The position numbers were made by a program, and so were the translations under genes. Positions 10,901-50,522 of a stretch of DNA of 64,000 nucleotides are shown piece after piece. Source of the stretch: a virus; IMG/VR virus record IMGVR_UViG_3300045988_106833, positions 12,326 through 76,325 of that record; one strand, written 5' to 3'. Under the pieces are notes generated by a model. The model ran no database searches. It had not been told where the DNA came from and saw only the letters and a program-made list of their open reading frames with translations. The stretch's first letter is position 1. The number at the start of each line of letters is the position of its first letter.

Positions 10901-13900
10901 GTAAGGCAGTCTATAATTGATAAACTATATACAGGTAATGCCGATCTTCTTACTGCGAGAGAAAAAGATGTGTATGATAAATACAAACAAGATTTTGATG
11001 ATTATGTATCGTCTTTGGGTGACAGTCCCGTTAATCTCATAAAATCATTATCTGAAAAGGCTGATAGGCTTACAAGTCCGAGATCTGTGTATGAGGATAA
11101 TAAAGCTATTATTGATATGGCTAAATCCAATTTAGAACCAGATCAAAGGAAGGAACTTGATGATGCTATTTCTTCGTATGTTGATATAATGAACAGACGG
11201 GATAAAGGGGAGAAGGTTGACGAAGATAAGCTTGCTGATTCGGTATTTACCATAGAAGATCTTGGTCAGGTTGGAAACATCACAGATCTCCTTCCTTATA
11301 TTGAACAAAACAGGATTATTGACAAAGGTCGTATTTCCGAATCTACGTTAAGTAATTTTGGAGAGGATGATGCTAATATAGATTCTCTTGTAAATGAATT
11401 AGACGAATCTGACAATACACCGGGAGCTAACATAGATAGCGTCCAGAATCCAGAGACGTTGATGGTAAGAAGAATCTCCAACGACGGCAATGAAAGGTAT
11501 GAAATTGCCGGTCTTAGAGCCGATAAATTTATATCTTCTATAAAATCATTGGTTCCTATTCAAATAAGCTCTGAAACGAACGCTAATGGAACTAAAAGGT
11601 ATTTCCTTAACATAGGTGGAGAAACGGCTACCGTGATAGAACTGCCTTATCATGCAAGATGGTCTATAGACAAAGAATCGGCTCGTGTTCTTAACCGTTA
11701 CACAGATGTGTCTATTCAGGACGTGGGTAATTCCTATTCTTTGGTTTATAAGCGTCTTGATTCAGATGAGTTGGTTCCGTACAGAACGGGTGTCGGATTC
11801 GGAGAGAATGAAGTAGATAAAATAGATCAGGAAGCATTATCTTCTTTGAAAAAAGGAGATAAGGTTAATCTCGAAATAGATGTAAATGATACCTATAATC
11901 AGTCTCTTTTTGCCGAATACAATGATGCTGTTCAGTCCGGCGATAAAAAAAGAATAGAATCTGCTGAGAATAAACTGGTGTCCAATATGGTTATCAAGGT
12001 CATGAGTGGGAACAGATTCGTTTCTGTTGTAAAAGCTGACACAGGGGGCATAGATGGTATAAGTAAAATAAGAAGAACGGCTTTTAACAAGTGGAAGAAA
12101 GATGCTGGTCGGTCGGCTACCATCAGCGTCGGCACGCATGTTGTTGCCCAGACTCTTCCCGGAAGACCGGTGTTTAACATGAAGGTAAACGGTCAAGGAT
12201 ATGGCCAGGTAGAAAATCTCCCTATTACCGAAAAAGGTGCTGAAAAAGTATCTGATGTAGGATATGTATTAAATGGCAAAGTCGTGCTTAAGAACGGATC
12301 TAAATACACAGGCTTCCCATTTGCTTATTCTATATTAAATGACAAGGGGAATAATTACAAAAATATAAGAGTTCCGGTAGTTGTTATCAAGGGTAAAAAC
12401 GGTCTTAATTATCTTTTCCCGGTTAGTCTACGTTCTGTAGAATCAGAGGAAGGAAAGAAATGGATTTCTTTTATAGATATGCTGCTTGAATCCAGTGGCT
12501 CTGAATTGTTACAGATGGGTCAAGATGATATACAAGATCTTAATGCGTATCTAACCAAGTTAGGTCTTGATCCGGCTTCGTATCAAGTATCGTACTTGAA
12601 TCCTATTTCAGGGCTTAGAAAAGCTCGTGAGGCTATAGAAAAATTATCTACGGTTCCTGATGTTGTTAAGTGGGTAGAAGATGGAAGTAGGAGCGTGAAA
12701 GACATTGTGACGTCTGAAGTAGAATCTGGAATAGATTTTGAAGGTGAGATGTTTGTTGCTCCTAAGATCAGGATCCAGTTTGGTAAATCATCTTCCAGAC
12801 CTAAATCACTTATAGAGGACGATCTTCCTTTCTCTGATGAGGGTAAAACCGTTACTTCTAAGGAAGACGTGGAAGTTTACGAAGAGGAAATGCCAGAGGA
12901 AGGGGTTGTCCGGGAGACTCAGCCGGCGCCACCGGCTCAACCGGCTCCTGCGGCACAAGCTACGCAGTCTTTACCTGGCAAGAAGCGTACCTCCAGGAAA
13001 AACTTCTCTCTTATGTTAAACGAAATAGAATCTCATATAGAAAAAGAAGGATTGCCGCCTTATGCTAATATTTTTGATTTTATAGCAAGGAAGATTGTAG
13101 GAGGTGACTTGAGGTTTCTTCGTGAGAGAGGTAATCCTAAAAGTCTTAAGGAGGAAATGGGATTAGAACCTAAAGGAACAGTAGGTGATAAGATATCCAC
13201 TCCTTCCAAGAAAGGTGGTAAGACTTTAGAAGAATACGTTTCTTGGCTTCGTTCTCAAACAGATCAGGTGGTGGTGGATTATGTTGGGCCAAGATCTGAT
13301 GAACAAATTATATCAGAGTTGAAAAACTTTTTGAAATATATTAATTTTGTTCCGAGTAAGGCTTTGAATTATTCTCTTAGAGTCAATGGCATGGACACCC
13401 TAAAGGAATATGGCACAAAAGAGGAAGTAGAAAAAATGGAATCTGATATCAATAGTTTGGTTTCTAAAGTTTTGCCTACGGTGGATAACCAAACTATAGA
13501 AGATGTTTCTACTGCAATAAAATCAAACAACTTGCCTGCTATATGGGAGCCCGTGGAAAGCCTTAATATGACAAATGAGGAAAAAATAGAGTTTTTGAAT
13601 AACATAGCGGATTTCCTTAGCGGCATACCAAGGTATGATGCTATTGTGGGGTCTATAGAGTCGGAATCAGATAATATTTTAAATGATGGAAAAGAAGGAA
13701 GTGCAGAAGGCGGTGCAGTACGCACTGAGGAGGATGGCGATAAAAAGGGAGATGGAGAAGGCAAAGGACAATCCAGAACAAATGTCGAAGTTAAAGGAAA
13801 TGTCGAATTACCTGGATCTGAAGAAGGAAGAGTAGATAACTATAGGAAGAACGGAGATAAGTTCTCTGACATTGCTGAAGTTACTTTATGGCTACTTAGA

Positions 13901-35121: not shown

Positions 35122-35430
35122 TTATTCTACTTTTTTGATTTCGCTTAAATCGCCTTCATACACCAAATAAGATCCTCTTCCAGGTCTTCCTTCTTTATTA
35201 ACTTCCTGGATTGTAAATATAACTGTTCTAGTACTCATGATTTGAATGCTCTTGAAGAAACCAACAAGAGGTTCTTTCGAACGTTTGTAAAGAACGCTTA
35301 CCTTATCTCCCTTCTTGAATCCATAAACAGAATCGAAATATTCCTTTTTAATTCTTTCAATATTACTTCTATGTTTGTTCATTGCATCAAGCTCTGTGTC
35401 TAACAGTTGAATCATTTGTTCTTTTGTCAT
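35122..35430 (-). CDS. hypothetical protein (102 aa)
   Basis: ORF track, coupled. Confidence 0.5.
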   Translation of the reverse strand: MTKEQMIQLLDTELDAMNKHRSNIERIKKEYFDSVYGFKKGDKVSVLYKRSKEPLVGFFKSIQIMSTRTVIFTIQEVNKEGRPGRGSYLVYEGDLSEIKKVE

Positions 35431-35984: not shown

Positions 35985-36036
35985 TGCTTTATCGTTGTTT
36001 TACCTCATTTCGATAGTAATATAATCCATCTTCGTC

Positions 36037-36324
36037 TTATACCCTATCATTTCTGTTTTTCTCAAAATACTGTCTTACGGCTTCAATCGCCTTATCGTCA
36101 TCAAAAGCCTCTACAAACCCCTCATAGAATCTATTTCGCTCCATAGAGAACGTATTGCTTCCATCCGGAATGGTTCTGAACACAACTACCTTCTCTCCAT
36201 CTACGTTCGTTCCTATGATGTTGTTATGGAGAATAATAGAATACCGCCCAGAGTTTTTGTTCTGGACGACACTATGTTCGAGATTGTAGAGTCTAAGTAG
36301 TTCTCTTATTTCTTTTACTCCCAT
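36037..36324 (-). CDS. hypothetical protein (95 aa)
   Basis: ORF track. Confidence 0.45.
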   Translation of the reverse strand: MGVKEIRELLRLYNLEHSVVQNKNSGRYSIILHNNIIGTNVDGEKVVVFRTIPDGSNTFSMERNRFYEGFVEAFDDDKAIEAVRQYFEKNRNDRV

Positions 36325-36325
36325 A

Positions 36326-37093
36326 TTATTTTACGTTTTTAGAAGTTACAGCCTCTTCTCCCCATTTCTTTACATATATAGATCTCATCATGTTCATTAA
36401 ATTAGAGAAAGAAGAGATGGTTCCCATCTCTATGCAGAATGCAAGATTAGACTGTAGGGTTTCAAGTTCTTTCAACTGCTCCTGTGTAGCCCTATTTCTT
36501 ATCATGCTTTCATGCTCATTAAATACAATCCAATTTAAGCCTTTAGCCATCTTGGAGTAATCGGCATCCGGAAATCTTGATATAGCTCTTGACAAGACAT
36601 TGTATTTATCACCTGCCTCTATTCGGTTTAAGATAAGCTTATCTGTTAACCACGTAACAACCTCAGCATACAACATAGGGTTTAGTTCCATAGCTACAAG
36701 CACCCATATATATGGATTACACATAGTTCTCCTATTCTCTCCTCTACCCATTGTCTTATAAGCTCCCATTTTTTTCATCACTTTTATAAGTGACTCTTTT
36801 TCAACAGATTGTATAAAACCAGGAAATCCTGATTCTATCCTATATCCTTGTTTTTCAAGGATATAGTAAACACGTTCCGCACTCTCCTTATTAGATAGGA
36901 TATTCTCTATTCTCTTTTCATTCCACCCCATCTCAACCCTCTTCTTCGTATAGGCTTCCTGAAGGTCTGTTAAGGACATAAACGAAGTTTTAGTGTCCTG
37001 CTTAATTATTACGCCAAATAATTCTCGGTCTTTTGATACCATTGTAACATTTGTTTTCATAAAATATAACACATAAAAAATAATACGATACAA
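36326..37093 (-). CDS. hypothetical protein (255 aa), possibly a KilA-N/antirepressor-like DNA-binding protein
   Basis: ORF with a promoter motif upstream. The N-terminal region is only loosely KilA-N-like. Confidence 0.5.
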   Translation of the reverse strand: MYRIIFYVLYFMKTNVTMVSKDRELFGVIIKQDTKTSFMSLTDLQEAYTKKRVEMGWNEKRIENILSNKESAERVYYILEKQGYRIESGFPGFIQSVEKESLIKVMKKMGAYKTMGRGENRRTMCNPYIWVLVAMELNPMLYAEVVTWLTDKLILNRIEAGDKYNVLSRAISRFPDADYSKMAKGLNWIVFNEHESMIRNRATQEQLKELETLQSNLAFCIEMGTISSFSNLMNMMRSIYVKKWGEEAVTSKNVK

Positions 37094-37118
37094 AAATATG
37101 TATCGTATTATATCTATA

Positions 37119-37126
37119 CAAATATA
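37119..37126 (-). promoter_or_regulatory. -7 promoter motif (minus strand TAtaTTTG), 26 nt upstream of the ATG at 37093
   Basis: The reverse complement of caaatata matches TAnnTTTG. Confidence 0.35.
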
Positions 37127-37157
37127 TTGTGTTAAATTTTATGATTATATTTTTACG

Positions 37158-37520
37158 TTATGCGCCTATGGCTGCCTCTAAATTCCCTATAATACCAGTT
37201 TCTATGTCATTGATTTTATCATCAATGGTTGAAACCGCATTCTCTAAATCCCCTACAATACTTTCTATATCATCAACAACCGCCTCCATATTAGCTACAG
37301 CCTCATCTGATTGATAATATCTTTCTGTATCTTGTAACGGCTCCGGCGTATTATCTCTTGCTTCCGTCTCTTCGTCTAAAATCATATCAACATCATCCTT
37401 GGCTGAATCCAGATTATGCCTAACCTCTGACAGCTTTGATTTGATAAACTCAAGATCTGTTTTATGCTTTTCCAAATTGGAAATAATATCCTCTATTTTC
37501 TTACGTCTTTTGCTGTTCAT
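37158..37520 (-). CDS. acidic coiled-coil protein (120 aa)
   Basis: ATGA-coupled to the helicase stop. Confidence 0.5.
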   Translation of the reverse strand: MNSKRRKKIEDIISNLEKHKTDLEFIKSKLSEVRHNLDSAKDDVDMILDEETEARDNTPEPLQDTERYYQSDEAVANMEAVVDDIESIVGDLENAVSTIDDKINDIETGIIGNLEAAIGA

Positions 37521-39973
37521 GCTTTTATTCTATTATAATATTCGATAATCTTTTCTTTCCTGTCTCCTGGTTTTACTGCCATATTCTCAGCCAAGAACCT
37601 AAAATACGACACTGGTATGTCCTTGAATCTAATTCCTTCATATTTTCCAAACCACATTATTATGCTGTCAAGATCGTCTTCTCTCCTACCATCTCTATTC
37701 ACAGATTTAAGCGAGGCTGCCCGACGAAGGATCTCGTCTTTGGTAATAATATCACCCATCCTTATATTAGACAAAAGTTGATCGCCGGCAAACATACACC
37801 AGCCCTTAGAAGGGAATTGCTCGATTGTCAGGTCTTCTATCCGACCAAAGCGTCTCATGTTGTCGCAGCAATCAACTATCAGCGCCTCTTTCTTGTCAGG
37901 ATGGATGCGGACGGCGCGGCCTAATATTTGGTAATAAGTTGAATATGAGAAAGTTGGTCGACCAAACATCACACAATCAAGTTCAGGAAAATCAAATCCG
38001 GTAGCAAGCGTTGAATAATTAAAAACCACCTTCAACTTACCTTCTTTGAAATCGGATATGATTTGCTCTCTTTTCTTTTTGGTTGTTAGCGATGTTACGA
38101 CACCGGTTATGGCTCCCATCCTGGCATTCATGAACTCTGATATTCTATTACATGATTCGATAGAATCCATGCAAACCAAAATGGCTTTACGCTCGTTCAT
38201 AAGTTGAAGAAGGCGCTTGTAGATAGAGTTGTTTAAGCCGTTTCGTACAATACTTTCTTTAATAGATTCGTTGGTGTATTCGGCTCCGGTACTGTTTAAC
38301 ATCAGAGCCGATTCATCAAACGACCATCGTTCGTACTTAAGTGGACACCAAAACCCTTGAGAGGTTAGTTCTTGTATTTGAGTCACATGAACTATTTTCT
38401 TGAAGAAGTTATGCTCGTCTTTCGTCAGCATATTGAGCTTGCTATAATTTCCTTCCAGCATGGAACTGTAGGTTCGGAGGCGGCAGGGAGTGGCGGTGAA
38501 GCCCAGTACCTTCGCCTCGGGAAACTCGCTCATAAACTCCATAAATTCAGAACCTTCCTCCGGGGAATACCCCGAGTGGCATTCGTCCACCAATAAGGTG
38601 TCTATCCCTATATCTTTCAACCTTGCTACGTCTTTCTTTATGCTTTTAAGTGTAGCATAAGTCATAGCCGATAGTTCCTTTATACCACATGAAGCAGAAT
38701 ATATAGTAGGTTTAGAACCGAATGATACGGCCTTTGCATAATTCTGCTCCAGAATCTCTTTTGAGGGCTGTAATACTAATGTCGGTCTATTTATTTCATG
38801 TGCTATCTTGGATATTATTAAAGATTTTCCCGAATTATGATGAATAAAGCATTGCTCATCCAAATATAAATGATTCCCATCTGTTGTAAAACCATAATAT
38901 TCTCCTTTTCCTACATATTCTACCTTGAAGCCAACAACATATGGATTTTTATTTATTATCCTATTGGCTCCTTTTCTTATACCAACCCTTACGGGTATAT
39001 TCTCTAAATTTCCATATATTCCAGTTCTATAATATTTTACACCATCAACAAGTTTACATGAGTATCCTGAACATAACAATCCTAAACTTCTACACAATAA
39101 AACAAATTGTTTCATCATTGTTTCAGATTTACTGCAATACTCATACCCTTTTCCTGATTTATTATAATAAGCATCTGTGTCAAGAAATCCAGCTAATAGT
39201 TTATATCTGTTTTCTTTATTTGATGTAAGATATTGTATTGGTATAAATTTATCACCAGATTTTCTATTGTATAATCCTATATCTTTAATAGCATTTATTA
39301 TAGGGTTCCCACCTCTTCCACATCCTTTTGATAAAAAATAAGATTTTGACTTATTGTTAGTTCCTTTCTTCTCTGCTACTCTTATATACATATTGTACTG
39401 CTTAACAAACGAATATAAATATTCTACTATTTCTTGTCGTTGAGTAGTTATGCTAAGACTGGAGGTGATACTGCCATCTCCAAGGCACAATCCCAAAAAA
39501 TAAGGATCTAACGGCATATTCTTTTTAGATTCCTCAAAATCGAAACCGTTTGGTCTTCTAAGCTTAAGAATCGTCTTATGATAAGGAGCAAATTTTATAT
39601 ACTCCCCGATGCTTACTTCTTCTATAGATGGACCATCTTTTCGTTTATCTTTTAATCTATACATTGACATTATATGGCCTTTATTCACGATAAAAGGCTT
39701 CCCTTTTAAAGGTCTTATTTCATACATGTCATCTATTCCATTATGCAATTCCAGGACAGTTCTTGGGGTTCCATCATCACCCATTACCCTATCTCCAACT
39801 ACAATATCCTCCACTTTCTTTATTGTCCCGTCATACATGAGTATTCCGTATCCTTTTGCATGACATCCGCATGGAGCTACGATTATGCCAGGCTTCTTAG
39901 ATCTTCCTGTAAGAAACTTAAGCCCGGCATCTACTGCCTCTTTCTGGTAAGGTCTAAGTTCAAAGCCCATCAC
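37517..39973 (-). CDS. SF2 DEAH-box-type DNA helicase precursor containing an intein (818 aa; extein 474 aa)
   Basis: Extein motifs: split Walker A APCG|SGKS, motif II LLVDECH, motif III TATP, and a C-terminal helicase domain. See the intein feature. Confidence 0.8.
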   Translation of the reverse strand: MMGFELRPYQKEAVDAGLKFLTGRSKKPGIIVAPCGCHAKGYGILMYDGTIKKVEDIVVGDRVMGDDGTPRTVLELHNGIDDMYEIRPLKGKPFIVNKGHIMSMYRLKDKRKDGPSIEEVSIGEYIKFAPYHKTILKLRRPNGFDFEESKKNMPLDPYFLGLCLGDGSITSSLSITTQRQEIVEYLYSFVKQYNMYIRVAEKKGTNNKSKSYFLSKGCGRGGNPIINAIKDIGLYNRKSGDKFIPIQYLTSNKENRYKLLAGFLDTDAYYNKSGKGYEYCSKSETMMKQFVLLCRSLGLLCSGYSCKLVDGVKYYRTGIYGNLENIPVRVGIRKGANRIINKNPYVVGFKVEYVGKGEYYGFTTDGNHLYLDEQCFIHHNSGKSLIISKIAHEINRPTLVLQPSKEILEQNYAKAVSFGSKPTIYSASCGIKELSAMTYATLKSIKKDVARLKDIGIDTLLVDECHSGYSPEEGSEFMEFMSEFPEAKVLGFTATPCRLRTYSSMLEGNYSKLNMLTKDEHNFFKKIVHVTQIQELTSQGFWCPLKYERWSFDESALMLNSTGAEYTNESIKESIVRNGLNNSIYKRLLQLMNERKAILVCMDSIESCNRISEFMNARMGAITGVVTSLTTKKKREQIISDFKEGKLKVVFNYSTLATGFDFPELDCVMFGRPTFSYSTYYQILGRAVRIHPDKKEALIVDCCDNMRRFGRIEDLTIEQFPSKGWCMFAGDQLLSNIRMGDIITKDEILRRAASLKSVNRDGRREDDLDSIIMWFGKYEGIRFKDIPVSYFRFLAENMAVKPGDRKEKIIEYYNRIKA
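38834..39865 (-). mobile_element. intein (344 aa) with a LAGLIDADG homing endonuclease domain, inserted in the helicase P-loop
   Basis: Starts with Cys right after APCG. Ends FIHHN, followed by Ser (SGKS). Removing it restores APCGSGKS. Two LAGLIDADG-type motifs, LGLCLGDGSI and LLAGFLDTDA. Boundaries verified codon by codon. Confidence 0.75.
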
Positions 39974-40346
39974 AATCTATTATATTATTTTTTGAAAGTT
40001 CTATTATCGCCTCTTTCAACATCTCCCTTGCTTTATTCTCATTATCTTCAAACAGGCATACACTGCACGTAGCACCTTTGGAGGGGTAGTCTCTGTAGGC
40101 TTCTGCTCTTTCTACAACGTACTCACAACAATAGTCGTGACTCATGTCTTTTGCTATACTTATAAAATGATCTTCTCCATCCATCAACACGCAATATTCA
40201 GCATCGTTTTCGCATGCAATAACACCTTTGTTTTTTAAAATGGATAGTACTTTATTTCCAAAAAGTCCAATATAGACCCATATACCTTTCCCTGCATTTT
40301 TGTAAAAAATATCCATTCCTTCTTTGATTGTAACTTTCTTTTCCAT
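39960..40346 (-). CDS. hypothetical Cys-containing protein (128 aa)
   Basis: ORF track. Confidence 0.5.
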   Translation of the reverse strand: MEKKVTIKEGMDIFYKNAGKGIWVYIGLFGNKVLSILKNKGVIACENDAEYCVLMDGEDHFISIAKDMSHDYCCEYVVERAEAYRDYPSKGATCSVCLFEDNENKAREMLKEAIIELSKNNIIDCDGL

Positions 40347-40352
40347 AATCCC

Positions 40353-40676
40353 TTATTTTATATCAGTAATTAAAACATATATTTTAGCAATATCTTCAAG
40401 ACTCACAGAAGAACGTATATATAGTTTTTCTTCGTACTCATATAGAGCGTACCCTTCTTTTATGTCTAATATCTTAATCACATGCTTGCCTCTTTCAAAT
40501 GGATCATCAAAGTAGCTCTTATGTTCGTATCTTTGACCTACTTTGATTTTGTCAGTTTTCTTCTTCATCTTATAACGATCTACTGCTCTACCTGTTTTTA
40601 TGAAAGCTGTCGTGAGTAAGTATAATAAAACTAAATACAAAAGGATCGCTACTCCACATGTTAGATCTTCTTTCAT
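40353..40676 (-). CDS. small membrane protein (107 aa, one N-terminal TM helix)
   Basis: Hydrophobic VAILLYLVLLYLLTTAF. Confidence 0.5.
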   Translation of the reverse strand: MKEDLTCGVAILLYLVLLYLLTTAFIKTGRAVDRYKMKKKTDKIKVGQRYEHKSYFDDPFERGKHVIKILDIKEGYALYEYEEKLYIRSSVSLEDIAKIYVLITDIK

Positions 40677-48958: not shown

Positions 48959-49949
48959 GATATTTTTCTTTTATCTTGTTACTAATTATCAAATCTGCCA
49001 CATCATCTCCGTCTCCTACATTTTCAACATTTTGAAGATAGTCCGATACTTTTATCCTTGACTTCATCATCATCCCATCTATCTTTTTACTCCATGTCTC
49101 AAATGCTTGTCCTTTGTCCGGAAAAGCTACAGTCTTTCTATCTTTTAAAACATCTATCACTTCCGGCCTTAGATTCTGCAACCCACCGGTAGCTACAAAT
49201 AACTCATCTGGTTTATTCACAGCGCATATAATAGCCGTCTTTTCTGATTCCACCAGATTAACCACCTTATCCGGATACTGGCTTAGAAGATGCTCTCCGA
49301 ACAGGCATTGCCTAAACAAGAAGTCTCTTGCATGCAACGAGTGATAAAACATAACATGAGGCCGCTCATTGTCACCGTCTTTTTCCTTCACTCTTTTTAC
49401 ATCAATCTCATTCCCCTGGCTGTCGGTCTTTATATAAAAGTCCATGATCTTGCCGGTTCTACATACAAAATCTTTGTCTATCTGCCAGAATATACAACAC
49501 CCTTTCCATCCCCATAAATCCATTGTTCCGACATGATACCTTCTGAACGCATCAGATACCCTTTCTTTTCCCCATAGAGACGATAAAAATCTAAATACGG
49601 TGTTTCTGTCGTCTGGAACCACAGTCCTCTCAAACTCGCTAAAAGGTATGTAATTTACAACGTCAGGATTTACAGGAGGGCGATAAGCTCTTATACACTT
49701 GTTTCCTGAAATCCAAAGATCTTTGTCACCTACATCCTTACCAGTGGGTCGTTTATCGTAACCGCAAGTCCGTTCATGATCGCATCTTCCGAACTCGTTA
49801 CCAACAACCTGACCTGTTGCCACATCAATATAAGGAGTGAGGCACCGGCTTTTTCCGCAAGCCGGGCAGGTCAGCTTTAGTCGGCTCCTGCCAGGCCTGC
49901 GGTCAAGTTGAAACCGGGGTACGTTTTCGTATCTTCTAAAATCAAGCAT
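48936..49949 (-). CDS. putative DNA primase: N-terminal zinc ribbon plus TOPRIM-like domain (337 aa)
   Basis: CPACGKSRC...CDHERTC zinc-binding motif. VESEKTAIICA and VAFPDKGQ resemble the TOPRIM Glu and DxD motifs. Confidence 0.5.
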   Translation of the reverse strand: MLDFRRYENVPRFQLDRRPGRSRLKLTCPACGKSRCLTPYIDVATGQVVGNEFGRCDHERTCGYDKRPTGKDVGDKDLWISGNKCIRAYRPPVNPDVVNYIPFSEFERTVVPDDRNTVFRFLSSLWGKERVSDAFRRYHVGTMDLWGWKGCCIFWQIDKDFVCRTGKIMDFYIKTDSQGNEIDVKRVKEKDGDNERPHVMFYHSLHARDFLFRQCLFGEHLLSQYPDKVVNLVESEKTAIICAVNKPDELFVATGGLQNLRPEVIDVLKDRKTVAFPDKGQAFETWSKKIDGMMMKSRIKVSDYLQNVENVGDGDDVADLIISNKIKEKYHEPGCLY

Positions 49950-50292
49950 TTTTGACTCCTCTCATTGCTTCTATGATTCTATCTGCTATAGTTATAGACC
50001 ATGACACCACATCTGGTACATATACTCCGCAATCTATTTCACCTTTTCTATTTTGTGCTTTAACAAACTCAATAGAATAAGCCTTAATAAGATCGAATCT
50101 ACGTTGCTCCCAGTCTACATCTTTGTTTTCGTCATTTACAGGAAGGGTATCGAGATAAAAATTTAAACTCTCACTTATCACATTCCCATTATCACCATAG
50201 AACTGTATTCTGTCATGGTCGCTTCTTGTAGTTGAGCTACTGAAAGTGATTACGTCTATTATCTCTCCTGTTCTTCTAATTTTTCTTTTCAT
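49942..50292 (-). CDS. hypothetical protein (116 aa)
   Basis: ORF track, coupled. Confidence 0.45.
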   Translation of the reverse strand: MKRKIRRTGEIIDVITFSSSTTRSDHDRIQFYGDNGNVISESLNFYLDTLPVNDENKDVDWEQRRFDLIKAYSIEFVKAQNRKGEIDCGVYVPDVVSWSITIADRIIEAMRGVKNA

Positions 50293-50522
50293 ACTCTTCT
50301 TGTATTTCTGACCAATATAGGCATTATTGTTTCGATGGTCTTGCCATATTTCTTATGAGATGCAAGTACACATATTGCATATTTATCTCCTATTTTCAAA
50401 TCTTTCGATAATCTTAATCTTGAACCCCTTTTGATGTTAATAAAATAATCACCAAAAGGATTGATACATATCGGTTTTACGATTTCTATATAATCTCCTT
50501 CAGGAATAACAATATCGTTCAT
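50289..50522 (-). CDS. hypothetical protein (77 aa)
   Basis: ATGA-coupled on both sides. Confidence 0.45.
   Translation of the reverse strand: MNDIVIPEGDYIEIVKPICINPFGDYFINIKRGSRLRLSKDLKIGDKYAICVLASHKKYGKTIETIMPILVRNTRRV

Follow-up and report, generated by a model that had tools for sequence, protein, structure and literature searches.

The helicase gene examined here lies within a 64,000-nucleotide (nt) stretch of viral DNA (positions 12,326 to 76,325 of the IMG/VR record IMGVR_UViG_3300045988_106833; the whole stretch is called the window below) and is interrupted in frame by a 1032-nt insert. We conclude with high confidence that this insert is a PI-SceI-type (yeast VMA1) class-1 intein with a nested two-motif LAGLIDADG endonuclease, situated in the Walker A motif (G/xGKS; here and below, a slash within a motif or sequence marks the insertion point) of a RadD-like superfamily 2 (SF2) helicase. 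The same explanation, given as a whole with that confidence, assigns the helicase to the replication module of a crAss-like phage from the human gut, a close relative of csAssE-Sib. The conclusion builds on established features, namely the sequence anatomy of the insert, its family membership and predicted fold, an exact presence/absence polymorphism among relatives, a flanking tract, and a mismatch between the divergence of the intein and that of its host gene. A preliminary description of this DNA, made from the sequence alone, had proposed a LAGLIDADG intein at this position. Its account of the insert was exact in every detail; to this we add the minus-strand location of the gene, on which it was silent. 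The features discussed below are the following.

37517..39973, minus strand: helicase precursor open reading frame (ORF), 818 codons from GTG or 817 from the ATG at 39970; stop codon at 37517-37519
39866..39973, minus strand: N-extein, 36 residues from GTG; its C-terminal end ...GIIVAPCG is the first half of Walker A (motif I)
38834..39865, minus strand: intein, 344 residues, 39.2 kDa, precursor residues 37-380, from Cys1 to His343-Asn344
39521..39865, minus strand: N-terminal splicing (Hint) region, with block A Cys1 (39863-39865) and block B N61-K-G-H64 (39674-39685); the boundary of this region is approximate and was taken from the secondary structure of the AlphaFold2 model
39470..39496, minus strand: first LAGLIDADG motif, LGLCLGDGS; Asp130 is aligned with the catalytic Asp of PI-SceI LLGLWIGDG
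39167..39196, minus strand: second LAGLIDADG motif, LAGFLDTDAY; Asp231 is aligned with that of PI-SceI LAGLIDSDGY, and the next residue is Ala where Gly is usual
38834..38929, minus strand: C-terminal splicing region, blocks F and G, FKVEYVGKGEYYGFTTDGNHLYLDEQCFIHHN, with Asp329, His343 and Asn344; aligned to PI-SceI ...YYGITLSDDSDHQFLLANQVVVHN/CG
38816..38833, minus strand: 18-nt tract directly 3' of the intein, comprising the +1 codon and the markers at +8 to +17; read as a co-conversion tract
37517..38833, minus strand: C-extein, opening with Ser+1 (38831-38833), SGKSLIISKIAHE..., and carrying the remainder of Walker A, DECH, TATP, Helicase_C and the stop codon

Anatomy and family membership of the insert

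Translation of 38834-39865 on the minus strand yields the 344-residue insert that had been described, beginning with Cys and ending in His-Asn followed by Ser. It opens with CHAKGYGILMYDG (CHAKGYG...) and closes with CFIHHN, and its 344 codons are uninterrupted and in frame with both exteins. The codons for APCG (39866-39877) precede the intein and SGKSLIISK follows it, the Ser codon lying at 38831-38833. As foreseen in the preliminary description, excision fuses APCG to SGKS and restores a P-loop, giving APCGSGKS, the SF2 motif I; the junction peptide predicted for the spliced helicase is KPGIIVAPCGSGK. Both of the LAGLIDADG-like motifs claimed for the insert were found (LGLCLGDGS and LAGFLDTDAY). 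The GC content of the intein is 32.0%, versus 41.5% for the exteins.

The catalytic set, consisting of C1, N61-x-x-H64, D329, H343, N344, S+1, D130 and D231, is complete and agrees with the consensus of the family, which we derived from the window intein and 28 relatives. Four of these positions (Cys1, H343, N344 and S+1) support by alignment the splice-junction residues named earlier. In block B, 26 of 29 relatives have the His and 22 of 29 the Asn.

The match of the insert to the intein family is far beyond chance by profile and pairwise comparison. The Pfam family Hom_end_hint (PF05203) was detected at residues 1-53 (E = 5.8e-19, 69.4 bits versus a cutoff of 32.1), a match that covers only profile positions 1-53 of 228; LAGLIDADG_3 (21.9 bits, cutoff 22.5) and Hom_end (20.9 bits, cutoff 21.1) were just under their thresholds. 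A phmmer search of PDB sequences returned PI-SceI, the yeast VMA1 intein, as the first hit (E = 1e-17), with the first 50 residues and both LAGLIDADG motifs aligned. When the 29-member profile (the window intein plus the 28 relatives) was used instead, the VMA1 precursor and PI-SceI were detected with E values of 5e-50 to 1e-48 (5.2e-50 for the VMA1 precursor), followed by Prp8 inteins at 1e-27 to 1e-30, and the alignment to VMA1 extended to the C-terminal ...YYGxxL..D.HxFLL....VxHN/xG. An AlphaFold2 (AF2) model of the intein built on the 29-member alignment had a pLDDT of 92.1 and a pTM of 0.90. Its best matches in a Foldseek search of the PDB were PI-SceI chains (E = 4e-25; template modelling (TM) score 0.74-0.80 normalised to the query), with the Thermococcus (Tli) and Pyrococcus (Pho) VMA inteins, PI-PfuI and Prp8 among the further matches. 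The endonuclease domain of the model matched I-DmoI and I-Tsp061I over about 185 columns (TM 0.54-0.65 normalised to the target). Hence, the identity that the preliminary description proposed to check by searching for Hint and LAGLIDADG domains is confirmed by the agreement of Hom_end_hint, the 29-member profile and the AF2 fold with PI-SceI.

An exhaustive search of 1.84 billion cluster representatives recovered 15,391 relatives at E ≤1e-3 and 3,034 at E ≤1e-30. Full-length relatives made up 140 of the best 150; all 140 start with Cys, and 137 end in His-Asn. Their insertion point is G/xGK followed by Ser or Thr in 111 cases, as in the window intein, and between GK and Ser or Thr in 14. Proteins that host relatives include SF2 helicases, RecA, AAA+, DnaB and T2SS-E (secretion) ATPases. 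The apparent uniqueness of the intein protein in a word-indexed search, which gave nothing above 50% identity and missed even the protein itself, reflects the search tool, as the exhaustive search recovered the protein as P0063 and an exact look-up of the precursor gave at least 12 contigs. A hidden Markov model made from the family alignment A1 and run against all six-frame ORF fragments of the window detected no intein of this family besides that at 38834..39865. The window intein is typical of this very large PI-SceI-like family, which resides almost always in P-loops, and it appears to be intact.

The precursor has a predicted mass of 93.1 kDa. Its insert-free form is a helicase of 474 residues when counted from GTG or 473 from ATG, the latter lying one codon 3' of GTG and being the annotated start of the csAssE-Sib homolog. 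APCGSGKS occupies residues 33-40, and SF2 motifs I (APCGSGKS), II (DECH), III (TATP) and VI (QILGRAVR) are all present. The SF2 helicase identity given in the preliminary description is upheld by the Pfam domains ResIII and Helicase_C, which were found on either side of the insert, and by the best NCBIfam match, the RadD (YejH) type (NF053632). The score of that match was 181 bits versus an equivalog cutoff of 720; RadD orthology is thereby ruled out, and RadD is the best named match only. By these profile comparisons, the host protein is best called a RadD-like SF2 helicase and not a RadD ortholog. The crAss-like label of the phage derives from the name of the csAssE-Sib record and from PHROG matches to large virion structural proteins. 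A literature search for csAssE-Sib gave no match.

Empty sites and probable recent movement of the intein

A megablast search of GenBank phages with the gene returned a single record, csAssE-Sib (OR575929.1; human gut, 151 kb), which is 94.8% identical to the window over 88% of a 25-kb stretch. The helicase gene of csAssE-Sib (WOZ57338.1) measures 1425 nt, equal to 2457 minus 1032, and is collinear with the window exteins (95.6% nucleotide identity, 7 amino acid differences); across the junction it reads APCG/CGKSLL. A scan of IMG/VR identified 219 relatives, and we compared the loci of the best 80. The insert is absent at the identical phosphodiester bond in 76 of them, two carry the window intein (L002 and L003), and two carry a related intein (L004 and L005), which is 56% identical and occupies the same insertion site in a 66%-identical helicase. 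The splice junction predicted in the preliminary description therefore lies exactly where csAssE-Sib and 76 of 80 IMG/VR loci lack the 1032 nt. Exact-pattern scans found the empty site in at least 120 IMG/VR contigs versus two for the intein probe, which consists of the first 30 nt of the intein, so that variant copies can escape it. The comparison with intein-less homologs that had been suggested thus revealed an intact host motif in csAssE-Sib, the 76 IMG/VR loci and the at least 120 contigs. Because close relatives lack exactly 1032 nt, the scenario named as refuting the proposal, a conserved non-splicing structural insertion, is excluded. The first 30 nt of the intein are also present in two further metagenome contigs, and the exact 817-residue product is encoded on at least 12 human-gut contigs; together with the two IMG/VR contigs, these independent sightings exclude an assembly artefact. 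Gut samples with intein-bearing contigs include ERR321207 and ERR321208 of PRJEB4336.

Empty sites have the forms APCG/CGKS and APCG/AGKS. The Cys type reads ...GTAGCCCCATGCGGA/TGTGGAAAGAGCCTTCTGATATCC... (also ...GTAGCCCCATGCGGATGTGGAAAGAGCCTTCTGATATCC...) and the Ala type GCAGGTAAGAGC. Among the empty alleles (L001 and L006-L081), this dimorphism of the +1 codon divides into about 56 loci with Cys (TGT) and about 20 with Ala (GCA or GCG, together with GGT). Ser at +1 occurs only in intein-bearing alleles, and empty ones carry Cys or Ala. As Ala is not usable as a splicing nucleophile, an intein that enters an Ala-type allele must carry its own +1 codon.

The intein is much less diverged than the gene around it. 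The window, L002 and L003 differ from one another at 2-3 of 1032 nt within the intein (99.7-99.8% identity) and at 48-69 of 1425 nt within the exteins (3.4-5.1%; Fisher p = 2e-14 to 8e-9 versus the intein), so that the divergence of the intein is at least 10 times below that of the exteins. The window exteins are 98.4% identical to those of the intein-less locus L013, versus 95.2-96.6% to those of the other intein-bearing alleles. We aligned 3 intein-bearing and 77 intein-less genomes over about 4.4 kb, comprising the gene and 1.5 kb of flank on either side. Bases common to all intein-bearing alleles and present in fewer than 5% of the 77 empty ones were confined to +8 to +17 nt past the point of insertion. 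With the +1 codon, these markers define an 18-nt tract adjoining the intein, which reads TCGGGAAAATCTTTAATA (SGKSLI) at every junction that was read in intein-bearing copies; empty alleles have TGTGGAAAGAGCCTTCTG or GCRGGTAAGAGCCTTCTG (CGKSLL or AGKSLL) instead. Changing the Ser codon from AGC to TCT takes three substitutions and is not achievable step by step by way of other Ser codons, which argues that it was imported and not built by stepwise mutation. We read it as a probable co-conversion tract from the C-extein of the original donor. L004 and L005 are ruled out as the donor because their 3' flank is different (AGTGGTAAATCTGTTATA), and a search for the donor lineage of the tract did not find it; in more distant relatives such as P0038 and P0040 the C-extein opens with SGKSLII, which is shared at the protein level only. 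All five intein copies examined have uninterrupted ORFs and are at least 99.3% identical.

Taken together, near-identical inteins in diverged host genes and the flanking tract point to recent spread by homing. These patterns are those predicted by endonuclease-initiated gene conversion; they suggest, but do not prove, that the endonuclease of the window copy is active. The words 'actively invaded' in the preliminary description are supported at the population level by the divergence of intein and exteins, the 18-nt tract and the presence/absence pattern.

One intein-less locus, L065 (IMGVR_UViG_3300045988_138926), has a divergent patch of about 90 nt around the insertion site, from about -18 to +72 nt. 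The patch reads GIEVLPCA/AGKSLIISKIAHELKRPIL and partly resembles the intein-bearing flank AAGTCTTTAATAAT. Recombination with a divergent helicase may have left it as a scar; alternatively, it may be a variant that resists cleavage, or the relic of an intein that was gained and then lost.

Known inteins, proposed mechanism and other readings

PI-SceI (S. cerevisiae VMA1; PDB 1VDE, 1LWS, 1DFA; VMA1 precursor 9COP) is the best match of the window intein in both sequence and structure. Both have a class-1 Hint domain with Cys1 and His-Asn, a block B that opens with Asn and not Thr, and, nested within, a two-motif LAGLIDADG endonuclease in which both catalytic Asp residues are present. They differ in length (344 residues in the window versus 454, about 110 fewer), overall identity is about 20%, and the model reaches a TM score of only 0.61-0.66 when this is normalised to PI-SceI. 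At +1 the window intein is followed by Ser and the yeast intein by Cys, and the host is a phage SF2 helicase instead of a V-ATPase subunit; the DNA target is accordingly unrelated to that of PI-SceI. The yeast VMA1 intein presumably interrupts Walker A in the register GAFG/CGKT, the same as that of the phage empty allele APCG/CGKS; the 29-member profile alignment, which ends ...VVHN/CG in yeast VMA1, is consistent with this.

P-loops of replication ATPases are preferred by inteins (Novikova 2016, PMC4760082), P-loop inteins occur in phage terminases (mycobacteriophage TerL1-a/b; Kelley 2016, PMC5050341), and inteins have been transferred between P-loops of unrelated proteins (PMC10710043). The statement in the preliminary description that P-loop inteins are well known is borne out by this literature (PMC4760082, PMC5050341). 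Like the window intein, DnaB-b, MCM-a, RFC-a and TerL1-a/b interrupt Walker A in ATPases of replication or packaging (PMC4760082, PMC5050341). The 'classic' site of TerL1-a is between Lys and Thr (PMC5050341), and the window intein is inserted two residues upstream of it. The P-loop-intein literature that we compared contains no description of an intein in a RadD-like SF2 helicase of a crAss-like phage. For crAss-like phages, the excerpt of Yutin et al. 2021 (PMC7886860) available to us reports Hint-Hop-type TerL inteins in the Delta group and a high intein density in the Zeta group. Those inteins resemble the window intein in residing in core genes of human-gut phages and in differing in presence or absence between close relatives; they differ in that a P-loop intein of a helicase is not mentioned in the excerpt. 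Closer counterparts are the mini-inteins P0038, P0040 and P0051, which occupy the same insertion point in related SF2 helicases (PTG/CHAKG...HN/SGKS or TGKS) and have homologous splicing blocks; their N-terminal part is up to 68% identical to that of the window intein. At 140-175 residues they differ from the window intein by a deletion of the endonuclease domain, a later stage of the homing cycle. An intein of this family had not been specifically described in this host protein and phage lineage; the kind of intein itself is very common and ordinary.

By analogy with the intein family, translation would produce a 93-kDa precursor with a split P-loop, and the helicase in this form should be inactive because its P-loop is split by the intein. 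Cys1 would undergo an N-to-S acyl shift, Ser+1 would attack the thioester, and cyclisation of Asn344, aided by His343, would set free the 39-kDa intein; an O-to-N shift would then complete a 53.9-kDa helicase reading APCGSGKS. The population data further suggest that, in a mixed infection, the free intein would cut the intact site of an intein-less allele (...CCATGCGGA/TGTGGAAAGAGCC...), and that recombinational repair would copy the intein from the intein-bearing genome along with about 18 nt of adjacent C-extein. An occupied site would be uncuttable, as it is split by the intein.

Several points weigh against an active homing intein. Protein splicing and DNA cleavage are both inferred here. 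The DNA-recognition region is mostly missing, residues 50-86 of the window intein (about 36 residues) corresponding to residues 50-167 of PI-SceI (about 117), and target recognition can therefore not simply be taken over from PI-SceI. Ala232 is atypical, as Gly is found at that position in 25 of 29 relatives and Ala in one of 29, and it could weaken the endonuclease. The five copies differ at 12 polymorphic sites, 6 synonymous and 6 non-synonymous, too few to indicate selection in either direction. Finally, an intein under strong drive might be expected to be commoner than the exact-probe counts indicate (2 IMG/VR contigs versus at least 120 empty), although a recent invasion or only occasional co-infection would also account for such rarity.

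The very low population frequency and the Gly-to-Ala replacement closing the second LAGLIDADG motif would also be consistent with an intein that still splices but whose endonuclease is weakened or dead, that spreads by ordinary homologous recombination between co-infecting phages, and whose homing cycle is in its decay phase. We consider this unlikely, yet credible. That decay does happen in the lineage is evident from the mini-inteins P0038, P0040 and P0051, and L065 indicates that short recombination patches arise at the site without an intein. Both catalytic Asp residues and the entire predicted endonuclease fold are intact, however, and the reading frames of the five nearly identical copies have stayed open. 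Moreover, the markers linked to the intein stop about 18 nt from it and the remaining gene is reshuffled, the pattern expected of repeated break-initiated gene conversion at the site.

Two more speculative extensions, which we judge improbable even as a pair, are that the endonuclease acts as a weapon against intein-less rivals, cutting an essential helicase gene and biasing the inheritance of the replication module, or that splicing is gated by redox state or metals in the anaerobic gut. If either were true, an abundant human-gut phage lineage would offer a natural system for intein drive or conditional splicing.

Another reading is co-option of the intein as a regulator: the helicase would stay off, its P-loop split, until splicing, and Cys(-2) and Cys1 (APC-G-C) could make splicing redox- or metal-dependent, timing the helicase during infection. 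Mycobacterial DnaB P-loop inteins respond to environmental stressors (PMC6195587), the clustering of inteins in P-loops has been taken as selective retention (Novikova et al., PMC4760082), and a Cys does lie two residues upstream of Cys1. This Cys did not evolve for the intein, however, since it is already present in intein-less alleles (APCGCGKS); nearly all sister phages manage without the intein, and its distribution resembles a recent selfish invasion. A regulatory role therefore appears very improbable.

That the insert is no intein at all, and instead a permanent structural insertion or a group I intron with an in-frame LAGLIDADG ORF, is virtually impossible: introns with endonuclease ORFs are common in some crAss-like phages (PMC7886860), but here the endonuclease lies between Hint blocks (A, B, F and G), the insert is bounded by Cys1, His-Asn and Ser+1, its predicted fold agrees with that of PI-SceI, the reading frame runs on through both exteins, and close homologs lack precisely this segment. 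The intron reading is also ruled out by an Rfam scan of 37000-40500, which detected no RNA intron family at E values up to 1 and gave only a sub-threshold chance match to a small nucleolar RNA (snoRNA).

Surrounding sequence and implications

That match, to the plant snoRNA R11/Z151, lies at 37196-37282 on the minus strand, inside a small coiled-coil ORF downstream of the helicase, and with 28.9 bits (gathering threshold 50; E = 0.036) it is almost certainly due to chance. Other differences between the window and csAssE-Sib surround the helicase. At 35137-35301 the window lacks a DNA (cytosine-5)-methyltransferase gene that csAssE-Sib carries (WOZ57332.1, about 1.1 kb). Just downstream of the helicase, at 36031-37219, the window has a cassette of about 1.2 kb where csAssE-Sib has about 680 nt with two hypothetical genes. 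The cassette contains ORFs at 36037-36324 (95 residues) and 36326-37093 (255 residues), the latter with no Pfam match and a weak match to phrog_6095 'amidase', and is common to some sister genomes (the flank of L037 is 99.7% identical). A third difference is a 547-nt insertion at 49971-50517, between the primase/helicase and 'DNA replication factor' genes, with ORFs at 49942-50292 (116 residues) and 50289-50522 (77 residues). In the representative library, 31 separate stretches of one protein, P0123 (6085 residues), match intein residues 8-59, the N-terminal Hint segment; P0123 looks like a giant protein in which Hint-like segments recur many times, and it is unrelated to the window.

Our analysis leaves the general understanding of inteins unchanged, as P-loop inteins in replication ATPases, including those of phages, are well documented (PMC4760082, PMC5050341) and the family is thousands strong. 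For annotation, the true helicase has 473 residues, and automatic pipelines would give an 817-residue protein with a broken Walker A motif. Overall, the near-identical inteins in diverged genes and the 18-nt tract show an intein in the course of invading an abundant human-gut phage population, a clear natural case. With two kinds of empty site, differing by Cys or Ala at +1, and with mini-inteins at the same site in distant relatives, this case makes experiments on homing and target specificity feasible.

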